Assembly: GCA_040217195.1 (NCBI GenBank)
Contig: JAVJNR010000001.1
Coordinates: forward strand, 1-64,000
DNA from: Leptospiraceae bacterium
GTDB taxonomy: Bacteria > Spirochaetota > Leptospiria > Leptospirales > Leptonemataceae
Direction: 5' to 3'
DNA length: 64,000 nt
In this document: positions 1-8,341 of the stretch, in pieces
Layout of the letters: every line of letters starts with the position of its first letter
How positions within the stretch are numbered: the stretch's first letter is position 1
Notes under the pieces: model-generated
What the model saw: only the letters and a program-made list of their open reading frames with translations
Databases searched by the model: none
Told to the model about the DNA's origin: nothing
Translations under genes and position numbers: made by a program

Positions 1-144
1 CTGTGACGAAGGCCGTCGGCGCCCGGAGCGTGCCCTCTAAGACCTGATATTCTGCACGCTCCGGGGAGAAGCCGACGGCCGGAGAGCGCGGAAACCCGAG
101 GAGCGAGCGAAAGCGAGCCCGCAGCGCTTAAAGTGCAGTTATGC
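1..144 (-). repeat. attC-like recombination site A (partial, truncated by window edge)
   Basis: Shares GAGAGCGCGGAAACCCGAGGA (82-102) and CGCAGCGCTTAAAGTGCAGTTA (120-141) with sites B and C; internal stems 11-20/71-80 and 23-33/54-64; core GTTATGC at 138-144. Confidence 0.85.
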
Positions 145-158
145 GCCGTTGCCAATTC

Positions 159-788
159 TTAAACGGTGGAGAGGATTAATTTGACTATGCCTTCGATCCG
201 GAAATCGTCAGCCACGGTAAAGGCTGGGTACTTTTCTGAATTGATTGATTGTAGAATCGGTGCTGATTCACTTTTAATCGATGGGACATACTTTTTGATC
301 AGTACTTGGCCTTGATTGACACATACAACGAGGTCTCCTGCATCCGCGGTTTGGGAAATCCGAGCTATGAGCAAGTCACCAGGATTGATACGAGGCATCA
401 TTGAATCTCCTTTGGCTCTAAGTGCAAAGGCCTCCTCGGGTGGAAATGGAATCATTTTGGAATATAGGGGGATGCGTTCGACCGGGTCTCCATCTAATAC
501 CGAACCGTTTGGACCACATTGTCCGCTTCCGTACCTGTTAATGTATACGATGGTACGTGCGGCCTTTTCTTCCGAAAGGATCTTATAGTCCCGGGTATTT
601 CCGGGGTTCCGCCAGAGGTGTCCTTTTTCCTCCAGTTGGAGAATATGGTGGCGTACTAAGTTGGGAGAGGTGAGATTCAGCTCCTCCATCAGCTCACGGT
701 AAGACAATGGCTCGTCTATATTCTGTTTCAGTAAATCGAGCAACTTCTGTTGCGTAGGGTGAAGTTGATTCTTCTTTGATCTTGCCAT
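159..788 (-). CDS. LexA-like repressor (N-terminal winged HTH + S24 autopeptidase), cassette-borne
   Basis: LexA-type HTH (PLSYRELMEELNLTSPNLVRHHILQLEEKG), Cys-Gly putative cleavage site (GQCG), catalytic Ser (KGDSM) and Lys (LIKK). Confidence 0.9.
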   Translation of the reverse strand: MARSKKNQLHPTQQKLLDLLKQNIDEPLSYRELMEELNLTSPNLVRHHILQLEEKGHLWRNPGNTRDYKILSEEKAARTIVYINRYGSGQCGPNGSVLDGDPVERIPLYSKMIPFPPEEAFALRAKGDSMMPRINPGDLLIARISQTADAGDLVVCVNQGQVLIKKYVPSIKSESAPILQSINSEKYPAFTVADDFRIEGIVKLILSTV

Positions 789-865
789 ATACTAAATGCA
801 TGTTGGGTAGTTCTGGCCACGAAAGAAAAAGGGCTATGAACAATTAAAAAGTCGCCGGACAATCT

Positions 866-884
866 GAACAACTATATTGTACAA
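866..884. promoter_or_regulatory. Candidate operator in the divergent lexA-like/DUF3892 intergenic region
   Basis: Imperfect inverted repeat TGAACAA-N5-TTGTACA; a further TGAACAA near 837; direct repeat TCGACCA x2 (888-905) just before the AGGAG RBS. Confidence 0.3.
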
Positions 885-915
885 GTATCGACCATATGTC
901 GACCAGGAGTGAGAA

Positions 916-1128
916 ATGCAGAAAAAAAAAGTCGAAGTTACCAAGGAAAGTGCCACTGGTTTGAATCAGAGATTTCGAGACAAGGAAACGAATAGGGAAA
1001 TGACTCGCGGTGAATTCGCGGATGCAATAGAGCGCGGAAAGTATCCGGGCTACCATGTAGAAAAGGCCAACAATAAGAGAGTCCCACGATCCAACCCCGA
1101 CAAATCTAAGGGAAATAATCTAGGATAA
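916..1128 (+). CDS. DUF3892-family small protein (70 aa)
   Basis: C-terminal RSNPD....NNL motif typical of DUF3892; AGGAG RBS upstream. Confidence 0.75.
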   Translation: MQKKKVEVTKESATGLNQRFRDKETNREMTRGEFADAIERGKYPGYHVEKANNKRVPRSNPDKSKGNNLG

Positions 1129-1138
1129 GGAAAATCAA

Positions 1139-1306
1139 ATGAAGCGAGTAAAAGGTCTAGCAGAGCTTCAGCGGGAACTTAAGCAATTAGAAAAGAAGGC
1201 CCGAGAGCTTAACGGAAAGAAATTGCATATTCAAACTGCAGGTAAATCGGAGCAGCAAATTCGGGCAGAGGTTCAGAAGTATGTTCGGAAAGAGCTAGGG
1301 TTTTAA
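1139..1306 (+). CDS. Small basic helical hypothetical protein, 55 aa (MKRVKGLAELQRELKQLEKKARELNGKK...KELGF); not in ORF track
   Basis: Manually translated; AAGGA RBS overlapping the DUF3892 stop; ends just before the cassette terminal repeat. Confidence 0.7.
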   Translation: MKRVKGLAELQRELKQLEKKARELNGKKLHIQTAGKSEQQIRAEVQKYVRKELGF

Positions 1307-1329
1307 TGGTGCCGTAGATTGGCAATGGC

Positions 1330-1562
1330 GCATAACGTACGTCTTTAAGCGAAGTTGCGCGCCTTCTGTGGCGCGCAATTTGGTTTGAGCGGCGGTTGCA
1401 GCCGCGCATTCTAAAATCCCCAAAATGCGCGGCTGCAACGAGGCCAGGCCGAAAGGGAGTTGGTCCGGGCTGGAGTTTCGGCTTCAGCGGCCGTAGTGCC
1501 GAGAGCGCGGAAACCCGAGGACCGAGCGAAGCGAGGCCGCAGCGCTTAAAGTGCAGTTATGC
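1330..1562 (-). repeat. attC-like recombination site B (233 bp)
   Basis: GCATAAC...GTTATGC cores, inner CTTTAAGCG/CGCTTAAAG inverted boxes, stems 1355-1378 and 1395-1439. Confidence 0.9.
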
Positions 1563-1573
1563 GCCGTTGCCCT

Positions 1574-2005
1574 TTATTTCTCAATCCTTAATAGTTCACA
1601 GTTAATCTTGAATATTTCCAGAGAGTCCTTATCGGTGAAGAACTGAAACCGATTCTTAGTGAGAAGCTTGAACCCCGGAGTCTTAGAGAATAGGGAAAGA
1701 AGAGTTTGCGCCGGAAGCTGCAAGAATTCAGCAGAGCATTGACTTGAACTACAGTTCCAATTTCCACGCTCTATCATTGGGGATTTGGGTGCATAGTTCG
1801 ACTGAAGGAAGAAAAGGAATCTCCCGCCTGCATAAAAGACCCACAGGATGGTAGCTTCGTCATTTCCGTAGGAAGAAATGATAAATTCGACATCTGACAG
1901 CGAGCCATCGGGTGCGGCAAATAGCTTCAAGGGAGTAAGAAAGATTACCACCGTTAGAGCTAATGCTATGGTACACTCTCTTTTGTTTAATGGGCAATGG
2001 CGCAT
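1574..2005 (-). CDS. Cassette-encoded hypothetical protein, probable signal peptide
   Basis: ORF fills the cassette between sites B and C; hydrophobic N-terminus (IALALTVVIFLTPLKLFA); stop adjacent to the terminal repeat; start codon uncertain. Confidence 0.6.
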   Translation of the reverse strand: MRHCPLNKRECTIALALTVVIFLTPLKLFAAPDGSLSDVEFIISSYGNDEATILWVFYAGGRFLFFLQSNYAPKSPMIERGNWNCSSSQCSAEFLQLPAQTLLSLFSKTPGFKLLTKNRFQFFTDKDSLEIFKINCELLRIEK

Positions 2006-2233
2006 AACGTATGTCTTTAAGCGAAGTCGCGCGCCTTTTGTGGCGCGCGATTTGGTTTCCAAGCGCGCCTGCAGCCGTGCGCTATAAATTCCCCCAAAGC
2101 ACGGCTGCAGCGAGGCCAGGCCGAGGAGGCATGTTGGGAACGGAATCTTCGGCTTTAGCGGCCGTTCGGCCGAGAGCGCGGAAACCCGAGGAGCGGCCGA
2201 AGGCCGCCCGCAGCGCTTAAAGTGCAGTTAGGC
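2002..2233 (-). repeat. attC-like recombination site C (232 bp)
   Basis: GCATAAC...GTTAGGC cores; homologous to site B with compensatory changes in stems 2027-2050 and 2069-2110. Confidence 0.9.
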
Positions 2234-2245
2234 GAAGTGTGCCCC

Positions 2246-2713
2246 TCAGTTGTTTTTCTGTTGCTGCAGATTTGCGGCTGCCTCAATACTATCGACCTTA
2301 TAGACTCGGCTGGCAGGTACCCATTCTGGGTTTCCCTGTAGCTGGTGCTGCACATCGTAGTAATCCTCAGCAAAGTTGACAATGCGGAGTCGGTAGGAGA
2401 ACCCTACCGACTGGCCCAAACCGGGGTCTTCGTCTTGAATGATGGTTAGTGTGTACTCGCAGCTTGAGTGCCATTCGATTCTGGCTCGTTTGAATTTGCT
2501 CGGAAACAGTCTGTAAGTGGTCTGAAACCGACCGTCTCGTTCAAATATGAGAAAGAGTCCCGATTCAAGAGTCACGTGAAAGGCCCCTTCATGTAAATAT
2601 GAGCAGTCCACTGGAATATCCTTTGACAAGCTGGGTTCATCATCCGCGTGCGCAAGGAGGATATTGGAAAGAAGGAGCATAGTTAAGGCTCCCGAGATCA
2701 ATACATTCTTCAT
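2246..2713 (-). CDS. Cassette-encoded secreted hypothetical protein (155 aa)
   Basis: AGGAG RBS before MKNVLISGALTMLLLSNILLAHA signal peptide; TGA stop abuts the terminal repeat. Confidence 0.75.
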   Translation of the reverse strand: MKNVLISGALTMLLLSNILLAHADDEPSLSKDIPVDCSYLHEGAFHVTLESGLFLIFERDGRFQTTYRLFPSKFKRARIEWHSSCEYTLTIIQDEDPGLGQSVGFSYRLRIVNFAEDYYDVQHQLQGNPEWVPASRVYKVDSIEAAANLQQQKNN

Positions 2714-2749
2714 TATTTCTCCTGAGATTATTGGTTTTGGGCACATTTC

Positions 2750-2982
2750 GCCTAACGTCTATTACCCGATCCATCGCAGACAGGTACAATTCTGGCCAGA
2801 GCTCGGGACAATGCCGAACTTTTGGTTCGCAGTTGCAGTTATGCTGAACATAAGTCGAACTCACCGCATCCCGGTGTTCGCTTAACCGTTTCAGGTTTGG
2901 CCGGAATAAGGACAATAGGCGAACCTTTTGTATTTTCGGGTTCGTCTTGAGAGTTCGGGATAAATCCGTCTTGCAGTTATTA
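2750..2982 (-). other. Putative attI-like primary site between the integrase stop and the first cassette
   Basis: Ends on the minus strand in AC-GTTAGGC like the attC junctions, but its body is unrelated to sites A-C; several CGAAC/GTTCG hairpins. Confidence 0.5.
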
Positions 2983-4023
2983 ACCGGCTCTTTGCATCAT
3001 TTCCAGTGGGCTTTTGATGCTTGTCAAGCGGCCTGTGGAAACGTGGGTATAGACCTGGGTGGTCCGGGCCGATGCATGCCCCAGTAGTTGTTGGATGTAC
3101 CGCAGATCGATCCCCTGTTCCAGTAGATGTGTGGCAAATGCATGCCGAAGCCCGTGTATAGAGACCTTCTTCTCGATGTTCGCTCTTTTCAGAGCAACCT
3201 GAAAGATCTTTTCCATAGATCGAATGTGCATCGGGCCGGATTCAATTCCTTCAAAAAGCCATCGCGATGGGCGATAGCGTTTCAGGTATTCCAGGGTAAG
3301 CTTCTGCGCTGAATCGGAGAAGATGCTGATTCGGTCCTTCTTTCCTTTTCCAGAGCGGACAGACAGAGTGCCTCTGTGAAAGTCCAGATCTACGGTTCTC
3401 AGATTTGCTGCTTCGCTGACTCTTAGCCCGGCCGAGTATACAATAGTGAGCAGTGTGCGATGCTTCAGGTTGATGGTCGACTCCAGCAAAATGAAGACCT
3501 CATTCAGGCTCAAGACGCTGGGAAGCTTTCTACCGCGTTTGCCGTGGCCGATCCGGAACATGGATCTCTTGCCAAGAATCTTTCCATGATAGAATCGGAT
3601 TGCAGAAATGCCCAGACCGAAGGTTGAATCCGATATCTCCCTGGATTCGCTCCAGTGGACCAGAAATCTTCGGGCATCCTGCTCATCGATTCTTCTGGCT
3701 GACTTACCTGCAAAAACAATAAGCATCCGGTTAATCCATTCGTAGGCATCTCTGGTTTGCTCACTGTATCTTCTTAACTTAAGTTCATCCCGCAGATCAC
3801 CAAGGTTCAGTATTCCTTCAAATTTGATACGAACGTAGCCCAGCCGAGTGATAGCCTTTAGCGGATCATCTTCTTGAGGTACCACCCAACAATTTAGTTT
3901 ATCATCGTACCTTGACTCTGGAATTTGAATTAGAAGATCCTTGATTTCTGAATAGTAACTGGAACGTAGCGAAAGTTCGCCGGGCCCATAGCAATCTACG
4001 CGAACCGTGATTCGGTCTGCCAT
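2980..4023 (-). CDS. Tyrosine recombinase (integron-like integrase, SAM-like N domain + catalytic domain)
   Basis: GLRVSE (R), GKGKKDR (K), HGLRH (HxxR), LLGH, TTQVY (Y); LKLRRYSEQTRDAY SAM_4-type start; adjacent cassette array. Confidence 0.92.
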   Translation of the reverse strand: MADRITVRVDCYGPGELSLRSSYYSEIKDLLIQIPESRYDDKLNCWVVPQEDDPLKAITRLGYVRIKFEGILNLGDLRDELKLRRYSEQTRDAYEWINRMLIVFAGKSARRIDEQDARRFLVHWSESREISDSTFGLGISAIRFYHGKILGKRSMFRIGHGKRGRKLPSVLSLNEVFILLESTINLKHRTLLTIVYSAGLRVSEAANLRTVDLDFHRGTLSVRSGKGKKDRISIFSDSAQKLTLEYLKRYRPSRWLFEGIESGPMHIRSMEKIFQVALKRANIEKKVSIHGLRHAFATHLLEQGIDLRYIQQLLGHASARTTQVYTHVSTGRLTSIKSPLEMMQRAG

Positions 4024-4749
4024 ACTTAGAGGATGTCTGCAAAAAGGTAATTGTCTCGCAATTCTCTGTCCGTACGGAGCTCCGCCCGGTAAGTCCCAGC
4101 AATTTGAATATATGCTTGGATTTTTGCAATTCTGTTTTTTTTAAGGATATGATGCAAGCTCTCTTACAATGGAAGTGTGCATATTTTTTCGACATGGGGT
4201 TGAAATAAAATCGGCTTGGCAGCTAAAGGGAGTCCTATCTGGAGACGACCGCCAATGGCAACCTGATTGGACGAGCAAGCGCAATGCAGAGTTCATCCGT
4301 TCGATAAAAAATTGAGGTCAGGGAACTTAGAGCGATTTACAGGGAAGCAACAGCCGTCCCGCGGGTTGTTTCGGAACCGCAGAACGGAAACTGGACCTAC
4401 CGATGCATAGACATTTTAGCACGCTTCGTGGAGATCGGTTTCGAGTCTTTCCGGGTGCCGGACTCAGGCGGCCGTTTTAGTTTCTGAGCCAGCCATGGAG
4501 TCCCGACTCAAGTGCTGCGAGAACTAAACCCATCAAGAATGATCTACTGAACCCGTGCCTTTTCCCCTCGGGCATCCATTTCGGTTCTCGGATTGGAGGC
4601 CGGGCATGCAAGCCATGTTACATAATTCCGGACTCGGGGATATTACTGGATTCTGCTTACGGTTGGTCCTGCTGGATCGTTCAGGTCAATAGCTCCCTTC
4701 CATCCTGCCGATTTCTTCGGGTTTGACCTCGGCGGAAAAATCACGTTTG

Positions 4750-5050
4750 GTTCGGTCGAATCGTTTGGAGTTGGACCAAACGTATAGCTTGCGGCAGATT
4801 CCGTCGAATCGTTTGGGATTGGAACAAACGTATAGCTTGCGGTTGATTCCGTCGAATCGTTTGGGATTGGAACAAACGTATAGCTTGCGGCTGATTCCGT
4901 CCAATCGTTCGGGGTTGGATCAGGCGTATTGCTTGCGGTTGTTTTGGCCGGGCCGTTCGAATTCCGATCCGGCGTATTGCTCGAAGTTAATTCTACTGGA
5001 ATGTTCTGGTCTGAGTCCGGCCGGTAACCTGCGATTGGTCCGGCTGGACG
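4750..5050. repeat. 48-bp tandem repeat, about 4 well-conserved plus 2-3 degenerate copies
   Basis: GTCGAATCGTTTGG recurs at 4755, 4803, 4851 and (degenerate) 4899. Confidence 0.85.
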
Positions 5051-5140
5051 GTTCAGATTTGAACTTGCCAGAAGGGGCGCACTCCGGATTGGCCGACGGA
5101 TAATCCAGAGCGCTGTGAATGGCTGGTCTGAGCCAGGAGT

Positions 5141-8100
5141 CTAATCATCACCCGGAGCGGCGGGCAAGCTGATGTTGAATCGCTCCAGAACAGTAGCCCC
5201 AAAGTTCTTTAGATCCTCTGCGATCAGGTAAAGACAGGGAACCAGAACCAGGGTAATAAAAGTAGCAAAGACCAGACCGTACCCGAAGGATAGAGCGAGG
5301 GGTGCGACGAAGGCATCTTCTCCACCAATTCCATATACCGTGGGGATCAGCCCCAGAACGGTAGTCAACGAGGTGAGCAATACCGGCCTGAATCGCATAG
5401 AACCGGCTCTTACCACTGCATTGTGAACATCCGGTTCCTCTTTCCTTCGATTAATGATAAATTGAACAAGAACCAGAGTATTCGAAACAACAACTCCGGC
5501 AAGGGAGACCACACCCAGTAATGACATAAAGGAAAGTGGCTCACCGTGGGCCAGCAGGGCCAGAATCACACCTACCAATCCGAATGGAATGGCACTCATC
5601 ACAACCACGGGAAGAATCAATGATCTGAAAAAACTGGCCAGGATCATATAGATGGTGAGCATCGCAAATCCAAACAGAACCGCCAGGTTGCCCAGGGATT
5701 CATTTCGGTCTTCTTCTTCACCACCATAGTTGATCGTGTAGCCCGGATAACGGCTCTCTATGTCCTGAAATTTCTCAATCAGCTTCTGATTCACTGCAGC
5801 GGAAGTAATTGTTCCTTTCTCCACGTTTGCCTGGACCTTGCCCACCCTGCGGAAGTTCAGACGATTGATCATGCTGTATCCAGGAGTGGGTTCGCCCCAG
5901 TCCGTAACCGCAGAAAGTGGAACCAGACCACCCTTGTTGTTGGACACATACACATCCCTGAGATTTTCTTCACCGCTTCTTGCCCTGTCCGGAAAGCGAA
6001 CTCGAACCTCAATTTCATCTTCCCCTTCATTGACGGTGGTTGCTATGGCTCCATCGAATGCGGAGCGAATTGTAGTGGCGATGGTGGCCACGCTCAGTTC
6101 TGACCTGGCTGCTTTGACTTCATTTACATCGAACCGGTATTCTAGTTTTCCCGGTTCCAGGTCTGTAGAAACATCGAATACTCCATTAATTCCTCTCAGA
6201 TAAGTCATGTACTCATCGGCGATGGTTCTCAGTGTTTCGATATCATCTCCACGAATTTCCACATTCACGGGCATACCCACCGGCGGGCCCCCTTCCTGGA
6301 TTCTGAAATCCAGAGAAAGATCCTGATGAATCATCCCTTCTTTGCGAGCCGCTTCCGTGGCCTTTCGAAGGGAAGTCAGCATATCGCCTGCATCTTTTTC
6401 CCTTTCTCCCACAGGAGTGAGGTTCAGGATTAATGTACCTCTATGCGTGGCCTCAGAGGGAGCTGGATCCGTAGGATTGGCCAGTTCTACTCCCACTCTG
6501 GTTTGCATGGACTCCAGGTCCTCGGGAGGCAGAGTTTTCAGTGCCAGGTCTTCCAGAGGCTTCAGTGCCTGCAGGTTGGTTTGCAGATTGGTTCCCTGAG
6601 GCATGCGAGTCCTCACCAGGATTCCTTCCCCTCCTCCGCCTGGAAAGAAAACGAATCCCAGGGCAAATGCAGCAAGAACCAGAGAAAGAAAAAATACACC
6701 GATCAGTGAGCCCACAGCCAGGTATCGTCTGTGCAGACAGAATGAAAGAAATTTCGCATAGCCATCCGTCAGAGTGCCGAAGAATCCACCGGAGTTTCCG
6801 TCGCTTCCATCGCTGGCCCCTTCCAGGCGATCCACGTCTTTGACTCGAGCGAATGTCTCTAGATGGCTGGGCAGGATGAACATGGCTGCCAGCCAGCTGG
6901 CGCAGAGACAAAGAATGATTACCATGGGGATGGACCAGACAAACTTTCCTACGATTCCAGTCATATAAAGGAGAGGAAAGAATGCTGCGGTGATACAGAG
7001 AAGGGTGGTCGTTACTGGCCAGAAGACCTCTGCGGTACCGGTCTCAACAGCCTCCACGCGGCTCATCCCTTCTTCCATGTACCTGAAACCGTTTTCGGCC
7101 ACCACAATGGAAAAGTCCACGATCATGCCCAGTACCATGACCAGTGCGAACATCGAAACAACATTGAGTGTGATTCCAACTGTGGACATTCCCATGAAGG
7201 CCACCATAAAAGCCACAGGAATGGACATACCCACAATAAAGCTCATGCGAAATCCCAGGATGAGAATCAATGTGATTGCAAGCAGTGCAAAGCCGATCCC
7301 TCCATTGACCAGAAGGCTGGATAAACGGGTCCGGACAAACCGGCTTTGATCATTGAAATACTGAAGTTCCACACCTTCGGGAAGCTGTGCTCCTTTATAC
7401 TGCTCCAGGCTATTTTTCAAGGTGTCTGCAAGAACCAGCATATCTGATTCTTTTTTCTTCCAGACTTTCATAATGATGGCTGGCTGGGCATCAAATCGCT
7501 CCAGCAAATCAGGCTCTTCATAGGTATCGATTACTGTGGCCAGATCTTTCACACGCAGGGCTCCACCGCCTATGTTGGCCTGAACCACTGTTTGTGCAAT
7601 TTCCTGGGCATTCCGGTATTGTTCTTTGGTGCGCAGAAGATATTCGTTGGGTCCTTTTCGAATAACTCCGCCAGGCAGGTTCAGGTTTCGATTGGCAATG
7701 GACTGGATTACATCATTAAATCCAACTCTGTCCCTGCGAAGTGCTTCTGGTTGAACCTCCACGAGATACTCTCTATCCCGGTAACCGTATAGCTCCACCT
7801 CGGCCACACCATCCACGTCATAGATATAATCCTCCAGATGCTGAGCCGTTTGACGAAGCTTCCTGTAGTCTTCCAGTCCACCATCGCCTCCAAATAATGC
7901 GACATCTACAACTGGTTGAGTATCAAAAGTGATTTCTTCTACTATAGGTAGCTCTGAATTGGCGGGCAAATCGTCCACCGTTGCATCTACCCCGTCTTTA
8001 ATGTCATCGATGATCTTCTTCTTATCCGAAGCATCGGGATCGATTTCCAGTACAAATACTGAGATGTTTTCCAGGTTATAGGAATTTACCTTATCCAATC

Positions 8101-8341
8101 CGCTAATGGAGCGGAGTTCCTTTTCTATGGGAATACTGACCAGTTGTTCGATTTCATCTGGCGAAGCGCCTGGATAGATGGTGGTGATGGATACCCGGTC
8201 AAAGTTAACATTGGGAAAAGCTTCCCGATTCATGTTAACAATGGTTCGAGTTCCTGCCAGAAGGATCATGACTACCAGAAGGTTGATAAATAGACGCTGA
8301 CGAACAAAGAAGTGAATGATTTTGATCATAAATATTCCCAA
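5141..8341 (-). CDS. Efflux RND transporter permease subunit (AcrB/AcrD/AcrF family)
   Basis: 1066 aa; YPGASPDEIEQLV, LGMIVDFSIVVAEN, RFRPVLLTSLTTVLGLIP motifs. Confidence 0.95.
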   Translation of the reverse strand: MGIFMIKIIHFFVRQRLFINLLVVMILLAGTRTIVNMNREAFPNVNFDRVSITTIYPGASPDEIEQLVSIPIEKELRSISGLDKVNSYNLENISVFVLEIDPDASDKKKIIDDIKDGVDATVDDLPANSELPIVEEITFDTQPVVDVALFGGDGGLEDYRKLRQTAQHLEDYIYDVDGVAEVELYGYRDREYLVEVQPEALRRDRVGFNDVIQSIANRNLNLPGGVIRKGPNEYLLRTKEQYRNAQEIAQTVVQANIGGGALRVKDLATVIDTYEEPDLLERFDAQPAIIMKVWKKKESDMLVLADTLKNSLEQYKGAQLPEGVELQYFNDQSRFVRTRLSSLLVNGGIGFALLAITLILILGFRMSFIVGMSIPVAFMVAFMGMSTVGITLNVVSMFALVMVLGMIVDFSIVVAENGFRYMEEGMSRVEAVETGTAEVFWPVTTTLLCITAAFFPLLYMTGIVGKFVWSIPMVIILCLCASWLAAMFILPSHLETFARVKDVDRLEGASDGSDGNSGGFFGTLTDGYAKFLSFCLHRRYLAVGSLIGVFFLSLVLAAFALGFVFFPGGGGEGILVRTRMPQGTNLQTNLQALKPLEDLALKTLPPEDLESMQTRVGVELANPTDPAPSEATHRGTLILNLTPVGEREKDAGDMLTSLRKATEAARKEGMIHQDLSLDFRIQEGGPPVGMPVNVEIRGDDIETLRTIADEYMTYLRGINGVFDVSTDLEPGKLEYRFDVNEVKAARSELSVATIATTIRSAFDGAIATTVNEGEDEIEVRVRFPDRARSGEENLRDVYVSNNKGGLVPLSAVTDWGEPTPGYSMINRLNFRRVGKVQANVEKGTITSAAVNQKLIEKFQDIESRYPGYTINYGGEEEDRNESLGNLAVLFGFAMLTIYMILASFFRSLILPVVVMSAIPFGLVGVILALLAHGEPLSFMSLLGVVSLAGVVVSNTLVLVQFIINRRKEEPDVHNAVVRAGSMRFRPVLLTSLTTVLGLIPTVYGIGGEDAFVAPLALSFGYGLVFATFITLVLVPCLYLIAEDLKNFGATVLERFNISLPAAPGDD

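Follow-up and report, generated by a model that had tools for sequence, protein, structure and literature searches.

The subject of this study is a family of long repeats at the start of contig JAVJNR010000001.1 from a Leptospiraceae bacterium (assembly GCA_040217195.1; GTDB family Leptonemataceae). The first 64,000 nucleotides of this contig, here termed the window, carry three copies of one ~227-nt repeat that runs from TAAC to GTTA, identified by sequence reading and with a repeat finder, and beside them a gene for a tyrosine recombinase. The copies are named sites A (cut by the contig end), B and C. We regard them as very probably the attC-type recombination sites of a cassette array that resembles a sedentary chromosomal integron (SCI) and belongs to the Leptonemataceae.

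Organization of the repeats

The complete sites share one layout, with outer R boxes, inner L boxes, two spacers and an interior that contains hairpins (H1, H2 and a mini-hairpin) and a conserved 21-nt block. All lie on the + strand of the window.

1..144, + strand: site A, the 3' 144 nt, the remainder being lost at the contig start; block at 82-102, mini-hairpin at 103-118, L'' at 125-132, spacer at 133-137 and R'' GTTATGC at 138-144
1330..1562, + strand: site B, complete, 233 nt with full R boxes; the + strand is the putative bottom (folding) strand
1330..1336, + strand: R' box of site B, GCATAAC, with a putative crossover between A1335 and C1336, deduced from cassette duplicates in a congener
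1337..1343, + strand: 7-nt spacer of site B, GTACGTC, opposite the 5-nt spacer GTGCA at 1551-1555
1344..1351, + strand: L' box of site B, TTTAAGCG, forming a perfect helix with L'' CGCTTAAA (1543-1550) in which no base is extrahelical
1352..1381, + strand: hairpin H1 of site B, AAG-TTGCGCGCC-TTCTGT-GGCGCGCAA-TTT, supported by covariation
1395..1439, + strand: hairpin H2 of site B, CTAAAATCCCCAA, with a 16-bp stem and a 13-nt loop, supported by covariation
1501..1521, + strand: 21-nt block of site B, GAGAGCGCGGAAACCCGAGGA, a conserved sequence
1522..1536, + strand: mini-hairpin of site B, CCGAGC-GAA-GCGAGG, in which GC-GAA-GC has tandem G.A mismatches on either side
1543..1562, + strand: 3' end of site B, with L'' at 1543-1550, the 5-nt spacer at 1551-1555 and R'' GTTATGC at 1556-1562
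2002..2233, + strand: site C, complete, 232 nt with full R boxes, laid out as site B and forming the attC of the attI-proximal cassette; H1 at 2024-2053, H2 stems at 2069-2080 and 2099-2110, block at 2172-2192 and mini-hairpin at 2193-2207

The interior between the L boxes is ~190 nt long in both complete sites of the window. Within the spacer of site B, GTAC and GTGC are predicted to pair, leaving a GTC bulge on the AAC arm and an A bulge on the other. An initial annotation of this DNA had described R and L arms set apart by 7 nt on one side and 5 nt on the other, and sites B and C both have them. The differences between B and C that it had read as compensated base pairs are all there: the H1 stem TTGCGCGCC/GGCGCGCAA of site B (1355-1378) becomes TCGCGCGCC/GGCGCGCGA in site C, and the H2 stem TTGCAGCCGCGC/GCGCGGCTGCAA becomes CTGCAGCCGTGC/GCACGGCTGCAG. 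The mini-hairpin likewise takes the three forms that had been listed, which are GCGAAGC in B, GCGGCC-GAA-GGCCGC in C and GCGAAAGC, that is GCGAGC-GAAA-GCGAGC, in A. The 21-nt block, which had been called invariant, is so within the window (82-102, 1501-1521 and 2172-2192) but not strictly beyond it: a congener from the same genus has A instead of G at block position 10. The block is nonetheless among the best-conserved parts of the site, and only a few copies are split by an insertion of 17-20 nt inside it. This insertion, CACCCTCCGGGCATAAA, is seen in L196, L199, L219, L020, L007 and L023 (columns 204-240 of alignment A2, described below); within it CCTCCGGG is complementary to the CCCGAGG of the block and could pair with it. 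A separate observation concerns the H2 loop (window 1411-1423; L255, L258, L267-L270), where a C-rich word, (T)CCCCAA(A), is conserved across three genera while the stems differ. This word may be a sequence-specific contact.

The cassette array and its moving unit

Because the contig begins within the array, only three cassettes, those closest to the presumed attI, are visible in the window, and the three site copies of this genome all lie at the start of this contig. Five of the six other genomes of the genus have site copies. The array is seen at length in the congener G005, where a pattern of the block allowing up to two mismatches gives 267+1 matches and the reversed control pattern gives none. 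Its complete sites number 272 and measure 225-238 nt between the outer ends of TAAC and GTTA; they lie on one strand at a median spacing of 880 nt; all 272 are distinct, with a mean identity of 89%. They span 248 kb (G005:C4:4256929-4503961, loci L030-L043) with 271 cassettes between them, and the only block match outside this main locus is a single one in reverse orientation. The array ends at a recombinase gene that is 78% identical to that of the window and has its 3' end facing the array, as in the window. The end of the array was read in two genomes, G000 and G005, and in both a recombinase gene stands there. In G014 and G015 the array is downstream of the recombinase, and in G002 and G004 recombinase and site copies are on a shared contig. 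The initial annotation had named the repeats attC-like and far longer than classical attC sites, and this description fits their R and L boxes, their association with cassettes and their length of 225-238 nt, as against 57-141 bp.

The strand and the boundaries of the cassette can be read from G005. Among the 249 cassettes with an ORF (open reading frame) of at least 60 aa, the longest ORF is on the recombinase (-) strand in 235. Fifty-six pairs of inter-site regions at non-adjacent places match from end to end with an identity of 97% or more. In these duplicates the body of the left site (in + coordinates) has been copied along with the region, with a median of 5.5 differences and many pairs showing 0-3, and the body of the right site is at background (median 18 differences, against 15 for random pairs). 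The left body differs less than the right in 46 of the 56 pairs and more in 10. In all 16 pairs inspected by eye, identity ends directly to the left of the TAAC of the left box. From the duplicate boundaries and the strand of the ORFs, the cassette is an ORF followed by a site on the - strand, and crossover takes place at the far R box. This unit and this box make the + strand of the window the 'bottom' strand of integron usage. We infer the exact phosphodiester bond to be G|TTA on the - strand and TAA|C on the + strand, which places the putative junctions of the window at 1335|1336, 2007|2008 and 2755|2756. The cassettes and the genes beyond them are as follows.

1336..2007, - strand: cassette 2, comprising site B and ORF 1574-2005(-) of 143 aa, which has a signal-peptide-like N-terminus and no family match
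2008..2755, - strand: cassette 1, attI-proximal, comprising site C and ORF 2246-2713(-), which is preceded by GGAG and has no family match
2756..2979, - strand: presumed attI region, ~220 nt from the last TAA|C to the stop codon of the recombinase
2980..4023, - strand: tyrosine recombinase gene, 347 aa, co-oriented with the cassettes and matching Pfam Phage_integrase and Phage_int_SAM_4

To the right of ORF 2246-2713(-) lies a half-site, GGGCACATTTCGCCTAAC, which ends at 2756. Within one cassette the two flanks repeat each other in inverted orientation (window 2227-2244 versus 2740-2757), so that an excised circle would rebuild a long R stem; the R stem that site C shows as it stands is a mismatched hybrid. 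The window cassettes have no DNA match in the congener array, and one of their ORFs has paralogues there at 36-39% identity. Public sequencing runs were assessed as assembled contigs, in which no excision product was identifiable. In marine metagenome contigs the sites are joined to many different flanks, and such 'joints' mostly reflect the repeat itself.

Some further features of the arrays were recorded. Many G005 cassettes have duplicates that are not adjacent to them. An ATG within the R' box (window 2003-2005(-)), 2 nt past the putative crossover in G|TTATGCG, is a possible start for the ORF of cassette 2, and 11 of the longest - strand ORFs of G005 begin within ~12 nt of the 5' boundary of their cassette. 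An insertion sequence of the IS3 family (~1.2 kb, OrfA and a DDE OrfB) occupies the H2 loop of two G005:C4 sites, near 4297172-4298624 and 4337724-4339181. The two interrupted cassettes are 97.7% identical and may therefore descend from one insertion that was later duplicated; a third IS3-family copy, reversed, lies inside another G005 cassette. Lone site copies far from the main array occur at G005:C4:574270-574438(-) and G015:C1:3579203 and are possibly lone cassettes or small secondary arrays.

Folding and covariation

Both strands of sites B and C were folded with DNA parameters, and both sites are more stable than shuffled sequences on either strand. As single-stranded DNA (ssDNA), site B reaches -81.3 kcal/mol on the + strand (z -7.1) and -72.6 on the - strand (z -5.6), and site C reaches -76.1 kcal/mol (z -5.3) and -69.9 (z -4.6), respectively. 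In each of these four tests none of 200 shuffles folded as well.

Covariation was measured in alignment A2, which holds 150 sites, 97 of them taken from the 123 cluster representatives of G005 and the other 53 from elsewhere. The core structure tested consists of 52 pairs in the R box, the spacer stem, the L box, H1, H2 and the mini-hairpin, with 500 shuffles and slid versions of the structure as controls. Core cells are paired in 94.8% of cases, compared with 94.0% in shuffles and 28-43% in slid controls. The number of cells changed on both sides is 60, against 14.4 +/- 3.0 in shuffles (none of 500 as high) and 15-26 in slid controls. Double changes affect 14 pairs, against 5.4 +/- 1.3 in shuffles and 10-18 in slid controls, the slid controls being no better than observed. 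The covariation signal first noticed between two sites therefore persists in an alignment of 150, and it supports the R box, the L box, H1, H2 and the mini-hairpin. The L box TTTAAGCG/CGCTTAAA is 98.7% paired. In 'C-type' sites H1 shows a change from T:A to C:G, and H2 shows both T:A to C:G and C:G to T:A. A subfamily of 38 G005 members has the H1 stem replaced wholesale by TTGCCAGGGC...GCCCTGGCAA. One pair of the mini-hairpin covaries as G:C (122), A:T (20) and C:G (1).

Four candidate helices in the 3' half of the site were dropped, as their covariation was no better than in the controls. The multibranch fold proposed in the initial annotation is thus established for L, H1, H2 and the mini-hairpin, but its 3'-half branches find no support in covariation. 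Two procedures were set aside along the way: RNAalifold on the raw alignment of 272 sites gave a poor consensus because gap placement broke H1, and was replaced by folds of single sequences mapped onto alignment columns; and a set of pairs pooled from folds of both strands mixed in false pairs and was not used. A search of window positions 1-6000 against Rfam with cmscan, repeat-like motifs included, gave five weak matches at E up to 10, all far below gathering scores. The best, at 22.7 bits against a gathering score of 36, lies outside the sites, and those touching the sites are sraL (17 bits against 39) and ssnA (15.6 against 37.3); no described family was matched.

The site family in other genera

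The words that flank the H1 stem provide a search motif, GAAGTTG-N7-25-CAATTTG, which occurs 384 times in 25 of the 42 genomes of the family and in 16 of its 21 genera; the reversed control gives 5. Between the two words stand many different self-complementary stems with GAA, GCA or GNNA loops, such as GGCC-GCA-GGCC, ACGC-GAA-GCGT and CGAGC-GAA-GCGAG. The TTG/CAA base is kept across the family while the inner stem changes, and this cross-genus evidence for H1 is stronger than the covariation within the genus. Some matches to the motif do not form hairpins; most of these come from genus g2, and chance probably accounts for them.

Complete sites in other genera vary in length. G014 has sites of 229 and 196 nt and G015 has sites of 174, 127, 125 and 58 nt, and 11 further sites of 167-203 nt come from G021, G026, G028, G009, G017 and one more copy in G015. 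The other-genus sites (58-232 nt) all keep TAAC/GTTA, a perfect L box of 7-9 bp, H1 and a long H2-like hairpin. The sequence of the L box differs by genus while its complementarity is kept, as in the five pairs TTTAAGCG, GGCTTAGCG, GATTACCCG, GGATTCCTG and GGATAACC. TAAC/GTTA ends are present in four further genera. In a set of 20 loci from other genera a simple rule placed both ends in 11; the other 9 had the H1 motif but no ends by this rule, and 3 of the 20 are shortened by contig ends. Matching public contigs include metagenome-assembled genomes (MAGs) labelled Leptonemataceae, Leptospiraceae and Spirochaetaceae, and 59 further stretches come from metagenome contigs. A pattern match in a Verrucomicrobia MAG (L083) has no profile match, reads like coding sequence and was taken as chance.

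Two side observations belong here. In L260, L262, L265 and others, H1 reads TTG-CGAGC-GAA-GCGAG-CAA, which is the same tandem-G.A/GAA module as that of the 3' mini-hairpin in the window. In G014, H1-motif matches extend over ~129 kb downstream of the recombinase gene (G014:C1:2326525-2455357, part of it in L245), and in the 20 kb that were read two site families of ~229 and ~196 nt alternate.

The recombinase and the presumed attI

The recombinase comprises an HARP-like N-terminal domain (residues 1-72), a SAM-like core-binding domain and a catalytic domain that lacks the insertion specific to integron integrases (IntI). Its NCBIfam scores are all below the cut-offs: 202.6 bits for XerA_Arch (220), 172.7 for XerC and 171.3 for XerD. 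The integron integrase model TIGR02249 gives 182.7 bits against a cut-off of 265, in two stretches. Its best sequence match among solved structures is the Vibrio cholerae integrase VchIntIA (2a3v; E 2e-34), again in two stretches, in which residues 76-234 and 269-341 align with 2a3v 8-168 and 246-318. The recombinase has 34 aa where IntI4 (VchIntIA) has 77, and the alignment to XerA (4a8e, 5hxy) has no such break. Positions ~173-239 of TIGR02249 are skipped in all five array-adjacent recombinases (G000, G004, G005, G014 and G015), and nothing in these five genomes matches the model above its cut-off. Canonical full-length IntI, at 305-508 bits for TIGR02249, is present in 41 of 401 Spirochaetota genomes; the sister family, with 75 genomes, yielded none. 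The array recombinase has homologues in 22 of the 42 genomes of its own family and 14 of the 21 genera, many of them at contig ends.

The model of the whole recombinase has a mean pLDDT (predicted local distance difference test) of 87.9, and its best fold matches are 2a3v (Foldseek E 2e-15) and XerA. In a tree of 38 sequences the housekeeping Xer genes of the same genome form a distant outgroup, and the Leptonemataceae enzyme family and canonical IntI stand together apart from them. The Leptonemataceae enzymes form a clade (support 90/85) to which one metagenome relative also belongs. The canonical IntIs of spirochetes make up another clade, with long branches, and further groups consist of relatives from other phyla, named in their sources 'tyrosine recombinase/integron integrase' or XerD. 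The branching of these three is a polytomy with long branches, so that loss of the IntI-specific I2 segment is not separable from never having gained it. The lineage could accordingly be a surviving relative of a pre-I2 integron ancestor or an independent second invention.

The N-terminal domain precedes the SAM-like domain. Residues 1-72, with an invariant Trp46, align to relatives that match Pfam HARP (PF07443) at 27.4 bits (cut-off 25), 24.2 and 15.9 bits, and HARP is matched at E up to 0.01 in 20 of 65 aligned family members. The domain is modelled with a mean pLDDT of 81.7 as strand-strand-helix-strand-strand-helix-strand. Its fold matches are weak: the N-terminal domain of T4 UvsW (Z 6.4, root-mean-square deviation 2.5 over 62 residues), that of archaeal XPB (Z 5.4-5.5; Foldseek probability 0.97, E 0.03-0.07) and the SMARCAL1 HARP substrate recognition domain 4o66 (Z 4.2, Foldseek template modelling score 0.55, 25-26% identity). 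All Z are below 8, a range in which, according to the tool, a match can reflect a common arrangement. HARP and the N-terminal domains of UvsW and XPB belong to one family that binds branched or forked DNA. No description of a HARP domain fused to a tyrosine recombinase was found in the literature searched, which omits most subscription journals.

The ~220 nt between the last TAA|C and the stop codon of the recombinase are presumed to be attI. The junction GCCTAA|C-GTCTATTACCCG (2750-2768) is conserved in the congener, and the window and G005 have in common a junction word, TAATA(G/A)ACG|TTA, and three GTTCG direct repeats, which in the window lie on the - strand at 2924, 2860 and 2819. Read-through into the cassettes from the co-oriented recombinase gene is possible.

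Which strand folds

The folding energy of the + strand is the lower one in 226 of the 272 G005 sites, and the bottom strand is the stabler in 11 of 11 and in another 11 of 11 sites from other families and genera. Read on the + strand, the consensus structure has two G:T pairs and no A:C pair; among minority cells there are 82 G:T against 43 A:C, counts that are not independent of each other. Tandem G.A mismatches occur in the mini-hairpin (GCGAGC-GAAA-GCGAGC) and in many H1 variants of other genera (CGAGC-GAA-GCGAG, GCGACC...GGGAGC), and they exist on the + strand only, as the complement would have C.T. In DNA, both tandem G.A pairs and GAA loops have unusual stability. These signs favour the bottom strand, which is antisense to the cassette genes, and so argue, in a suggestive rather than decisive manner, against a structure in mRNA. 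The initial annotation held that selection acts on folded single-stranded DNA or RNA: the compensatory changes behind that view are real, and the evidence leans modestly towards a folded + strand of DNA over cassette mRNA, but the 3' branches that it included are unsupported.

A model for recombination at the sites

In the reading that we favour, attC-type sites in an integron-like array, a cassette on the - strand reads TTA-flank-ORF-flank-TAAC-site body-G, with the recombinase upstream and co-oriented and a presumed attI of ~220 nt in between. The + (bottom) strand would fold on itself as ssDNA, such that TAAC and GTTA form the R box and TTTAAGCG and CGCTTAAA the L box, with the 7/5-nt spacer between them. 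The paired R and L boxes would resemble a double-stranded core site for two recombinase monomers, with cleavage and strand exchange at TAA|C, precisely between the A and the C. The L arms would enclose an oversized, branched variable terminal structure (VTS) with H1, H2, a purine-rich 3' part that includes the block, and the GAA mini-hairpin. H1, H2 and the mini-hairpin probably nucleate folding and so bring the distant L arms together. The enzyme acting on the sites would be the neighbouring recombinase.

How such an enzyme would recognize the folded site is a further question. In IntI, the I2 helix reads the extrahelical bases of the site; here the HARP-like domain would take its place and read branched DNA, a proposal drawn from models and from matches in relatives that forms the least secure step of the scheme. 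We tentatively consider, as a possibility on the doubtful side, that the locus represents a second, unrecognized integron design, in which a recombinase without I2 reads a branched attC without extrahelical bases through an N-terminal domain similar to those of HARP, UvsW and XPB. Candidate docking points in such a design would be GAAGTTG..CAATTTG, the C-rich H2 loop and the CCCGAGGAG block.

Several points weigh against the favoured reading of the sites. Counted by column, G:T and A:C pairs stand at 33 to 24 (p 0.29), which is not significant and makes the strand asymmetry modest. The largest bulge of the spacer, GTC, is on the same arm as AAC; in the bottom strand of canonical sites the extrahelical bases are on the arm that faces AAC (PMC5027507). 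By the position of the bulge alone, the - strand would look like the bottom strand. Double changes within the genus come mostly from a few sub-lineages of sites and therefore represent far fewer independent events than cells. Of the helices in the 3' half, GGTTT/AAACC, GCGG/CCGC and GGCC(G)/(C)GGCC have 5 double-changed cells, not above slid controls, and GCCGAAA/TTTCGGC is just 62.6% paired and shows no covariation above controls. The N-terminal 86 aa of the window recombinase have no Pfam match at E up to 1. No recombinase without I2 is known to handle folded attC sites.

Alternative explanations

The same array could be recombined as double-stranded DNA in an Xer-like manner, both pairs of strands being exchanged at the left box (TAAC-7 nt-TTTAAGCG). 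The hairpins and the distal inverted copy would then have another task, such as cassette expression, stability of the transcript or pausing of replication. Such a reaction would suit an enzyme of Xer length without the insertion that, in IntI, prevents a second strand exchange (PMC4792948), an L box with no extrahelical base and a strand asymmetry that is only modest. A one-box reaction on double-stranded DNA would, however, need no complementarity between L' and L'', which is kept through sequence change at the level of genera; AAC and GTT are conserved at both ends of the site, the folded R and L arms are alike as inverted binding sites (GCGCATAAC versus GCGCTTAAA), and the bottom strand is the stabler in all 22 sites folded across genera. 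We consider this explanation improbable.

An element that works mainly as RNA would make the likeness to attC secondary. As a terminator, a processing site or a stabilizer between cassette genes, or as a small RNA, it would fit the stable hairpins and the presence of an element after nearly every cassette ORF, and one metatranscriptome library has 7 small contigs of site pieces, which are possibly DNA carry-over and do not demonstrate transcription. This explanation leaves the crossover at the R box and the co-duplication of site and ORF without a cause; moreover, no Rfam family comes near its gathering score, the G:T and tandem G.A pairs point to the + strand, the antisense strand of the cassette genes, and the coding strand has no T run after the hairpins. 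It is in our judgement very unlikely. Selfish palindromes of the repetitive extragenic palindrome (REP) or miniature inverted-repeat transposable element (MITE) kind, spreading by themselves with ordinary chromosomal genes in between, are scarcely credible. The copies are indeed numerous, palindromic and nearly identical, but 272 of them stand in one orientation at one locus of G005, with a single block match elsewhere in that genome. Each is tied to one short ORF, units of ORF and site are duplicated with exact ends, and the locus ends at a recombinase gene in G000 and G005, an association also found in G014, G015, G002 and G004.

Relation to known integrons

Published attC sites span 57-141 bp, with most SCI sites at 120-129 bp (PMC5027507, PMC5371416); they are recognized as a folded bottom strand with crossover at AAC, and SCI sites can have a branched VTS (PMC5027507, PMC5371416, PMC4792948). 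The sites described here share with SCI attC sites, such as the Vibrio cholerae VCR, the homogeneous imperfect palindromes after each ORF, the AAC/GTT ends, the R and L boxes with a spacer, crossover at one R box, very large arrays with duplicated cassettes and a possible branched VTS. They differ in length, as sites of the window/G005 type have ~227-233 nt and lie ~90 nt beyond the published range; in the lack of an extrahelical base in or beside the L box, which is a perfect helix of 8-9 bp in every site read; in the spacer, which is 7/5 nt here and usually 5-6 nt (PMC5027507); and in the interior, which consists of separate hairpins with conserved words and not of one long imperfect stem. 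With 272 sites in 248 kb, the G005 array exceeds the 203 cassettes cited for the largest SCI (PMC5371416).

The enzyme can be compared in the same way. As with the 'inverted integrase' integrons of Treponema, the phylum is Spirochaetota and the integrase gene is upstream of and co-oriented with the cassettes (PMC4889954). Canonical spirochete IntI differs in that the Leptonemataceae enzyme scores 183 bits in two stretches and is without the central IntI-specific segment. VchIntIA (2a3v) is its best match in sequence and fold, with aligned catalytic residues and a SAM-like core-binding domain, but ~42 residues are missing at the I2 segment (PMC4792948) and a domain of ~72 aa is added at the N-terminus. 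The catalytic domain has the length of Xer and is colinear with XerA (4a8e, 5hxy), whereas the genome has separate and very distant Xer genes, and the array enzyme sits at the head of cassettes instead of at a dif site. According to PMC5027507, XerC and XerD are alone among the other tyrosine recombinases in acting on single- as well as double-stranded substrates, and the action of XerCD on the folded single-stranded attachment site of CTX phage is a precedent for a recombinase without I2 on a folded strand. The likeness to HARP (SMARCAL1), UvsW-N and XPB-N consists of Pfam HARP matches in relatives and of fold matches, all of them weak.

Integron biology rests on one scheme, which combines the folded bottom strand of attC, extrahelical bases and an I2 reader. 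The I2 domain of IntI, ~20 residues long, accommodates the extrahelical bases of the folded attC; the two are presented as co-evolved, and their joint origin is called a 'chicken-and-egg' problem (PMC4792948). Both are missing here, so that two defining features of integrons fail together, and the locus looks like a working cassette system without either. What looks new, then, is the combination of long sites without extrahelical bases, conserved internal words and an enzyme that fails the IntI test, in an array that otherwise looks integron-like in its working. No description of Leptonemataceae integrons was found in the literature searched, which omits most subscription journals and the supplementary set of Spirochaetes attC sites of PMC8352920.

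If the recombinase is active on these sites, they offer a natural test of the requirements for recombination of folded single strands, the accepted range of attC size and shape widens, and the marine spirochetes hold a large unexplored pool of cassette genes. Search tools that require the IntI signature and limit the length of attC would miss such arrays. The default attC length limit of IntegronFinder is 200 nt. The limit was raised to 300 in one paper (PMC13616975). In other phyla and in archaea, relatives that share this domain order may likewise head cassette arrays that current integron finders overlook.

Other features of the window

Across the 64-kb window the GC skew is positive for the most part, with changes of sign, and gives no direction of replication. 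The oldest visible cassette of the window is unusually long, at least 1335 bp. It holds an ORF for a LexA-like repressor (159-788(-); LexA_DNA_bind and Peptidase_S24; TIGR00498 at 87 bits, under the cut-off of 111), together with small + strand ORFs at 916-1128 and 1139-1306. On the far side of the recombinase, overlapping copies of a 96-nt repeat with an offset and period of 48 nt occupy 4696-4983, ~670-960 nt upstream of its start codon. Beyond them and outside the array, an ORF of 1066 aa (5141-8341(-)) resembles, by its translation alone, an efflux transporter of the resistance-nodulation-division type.

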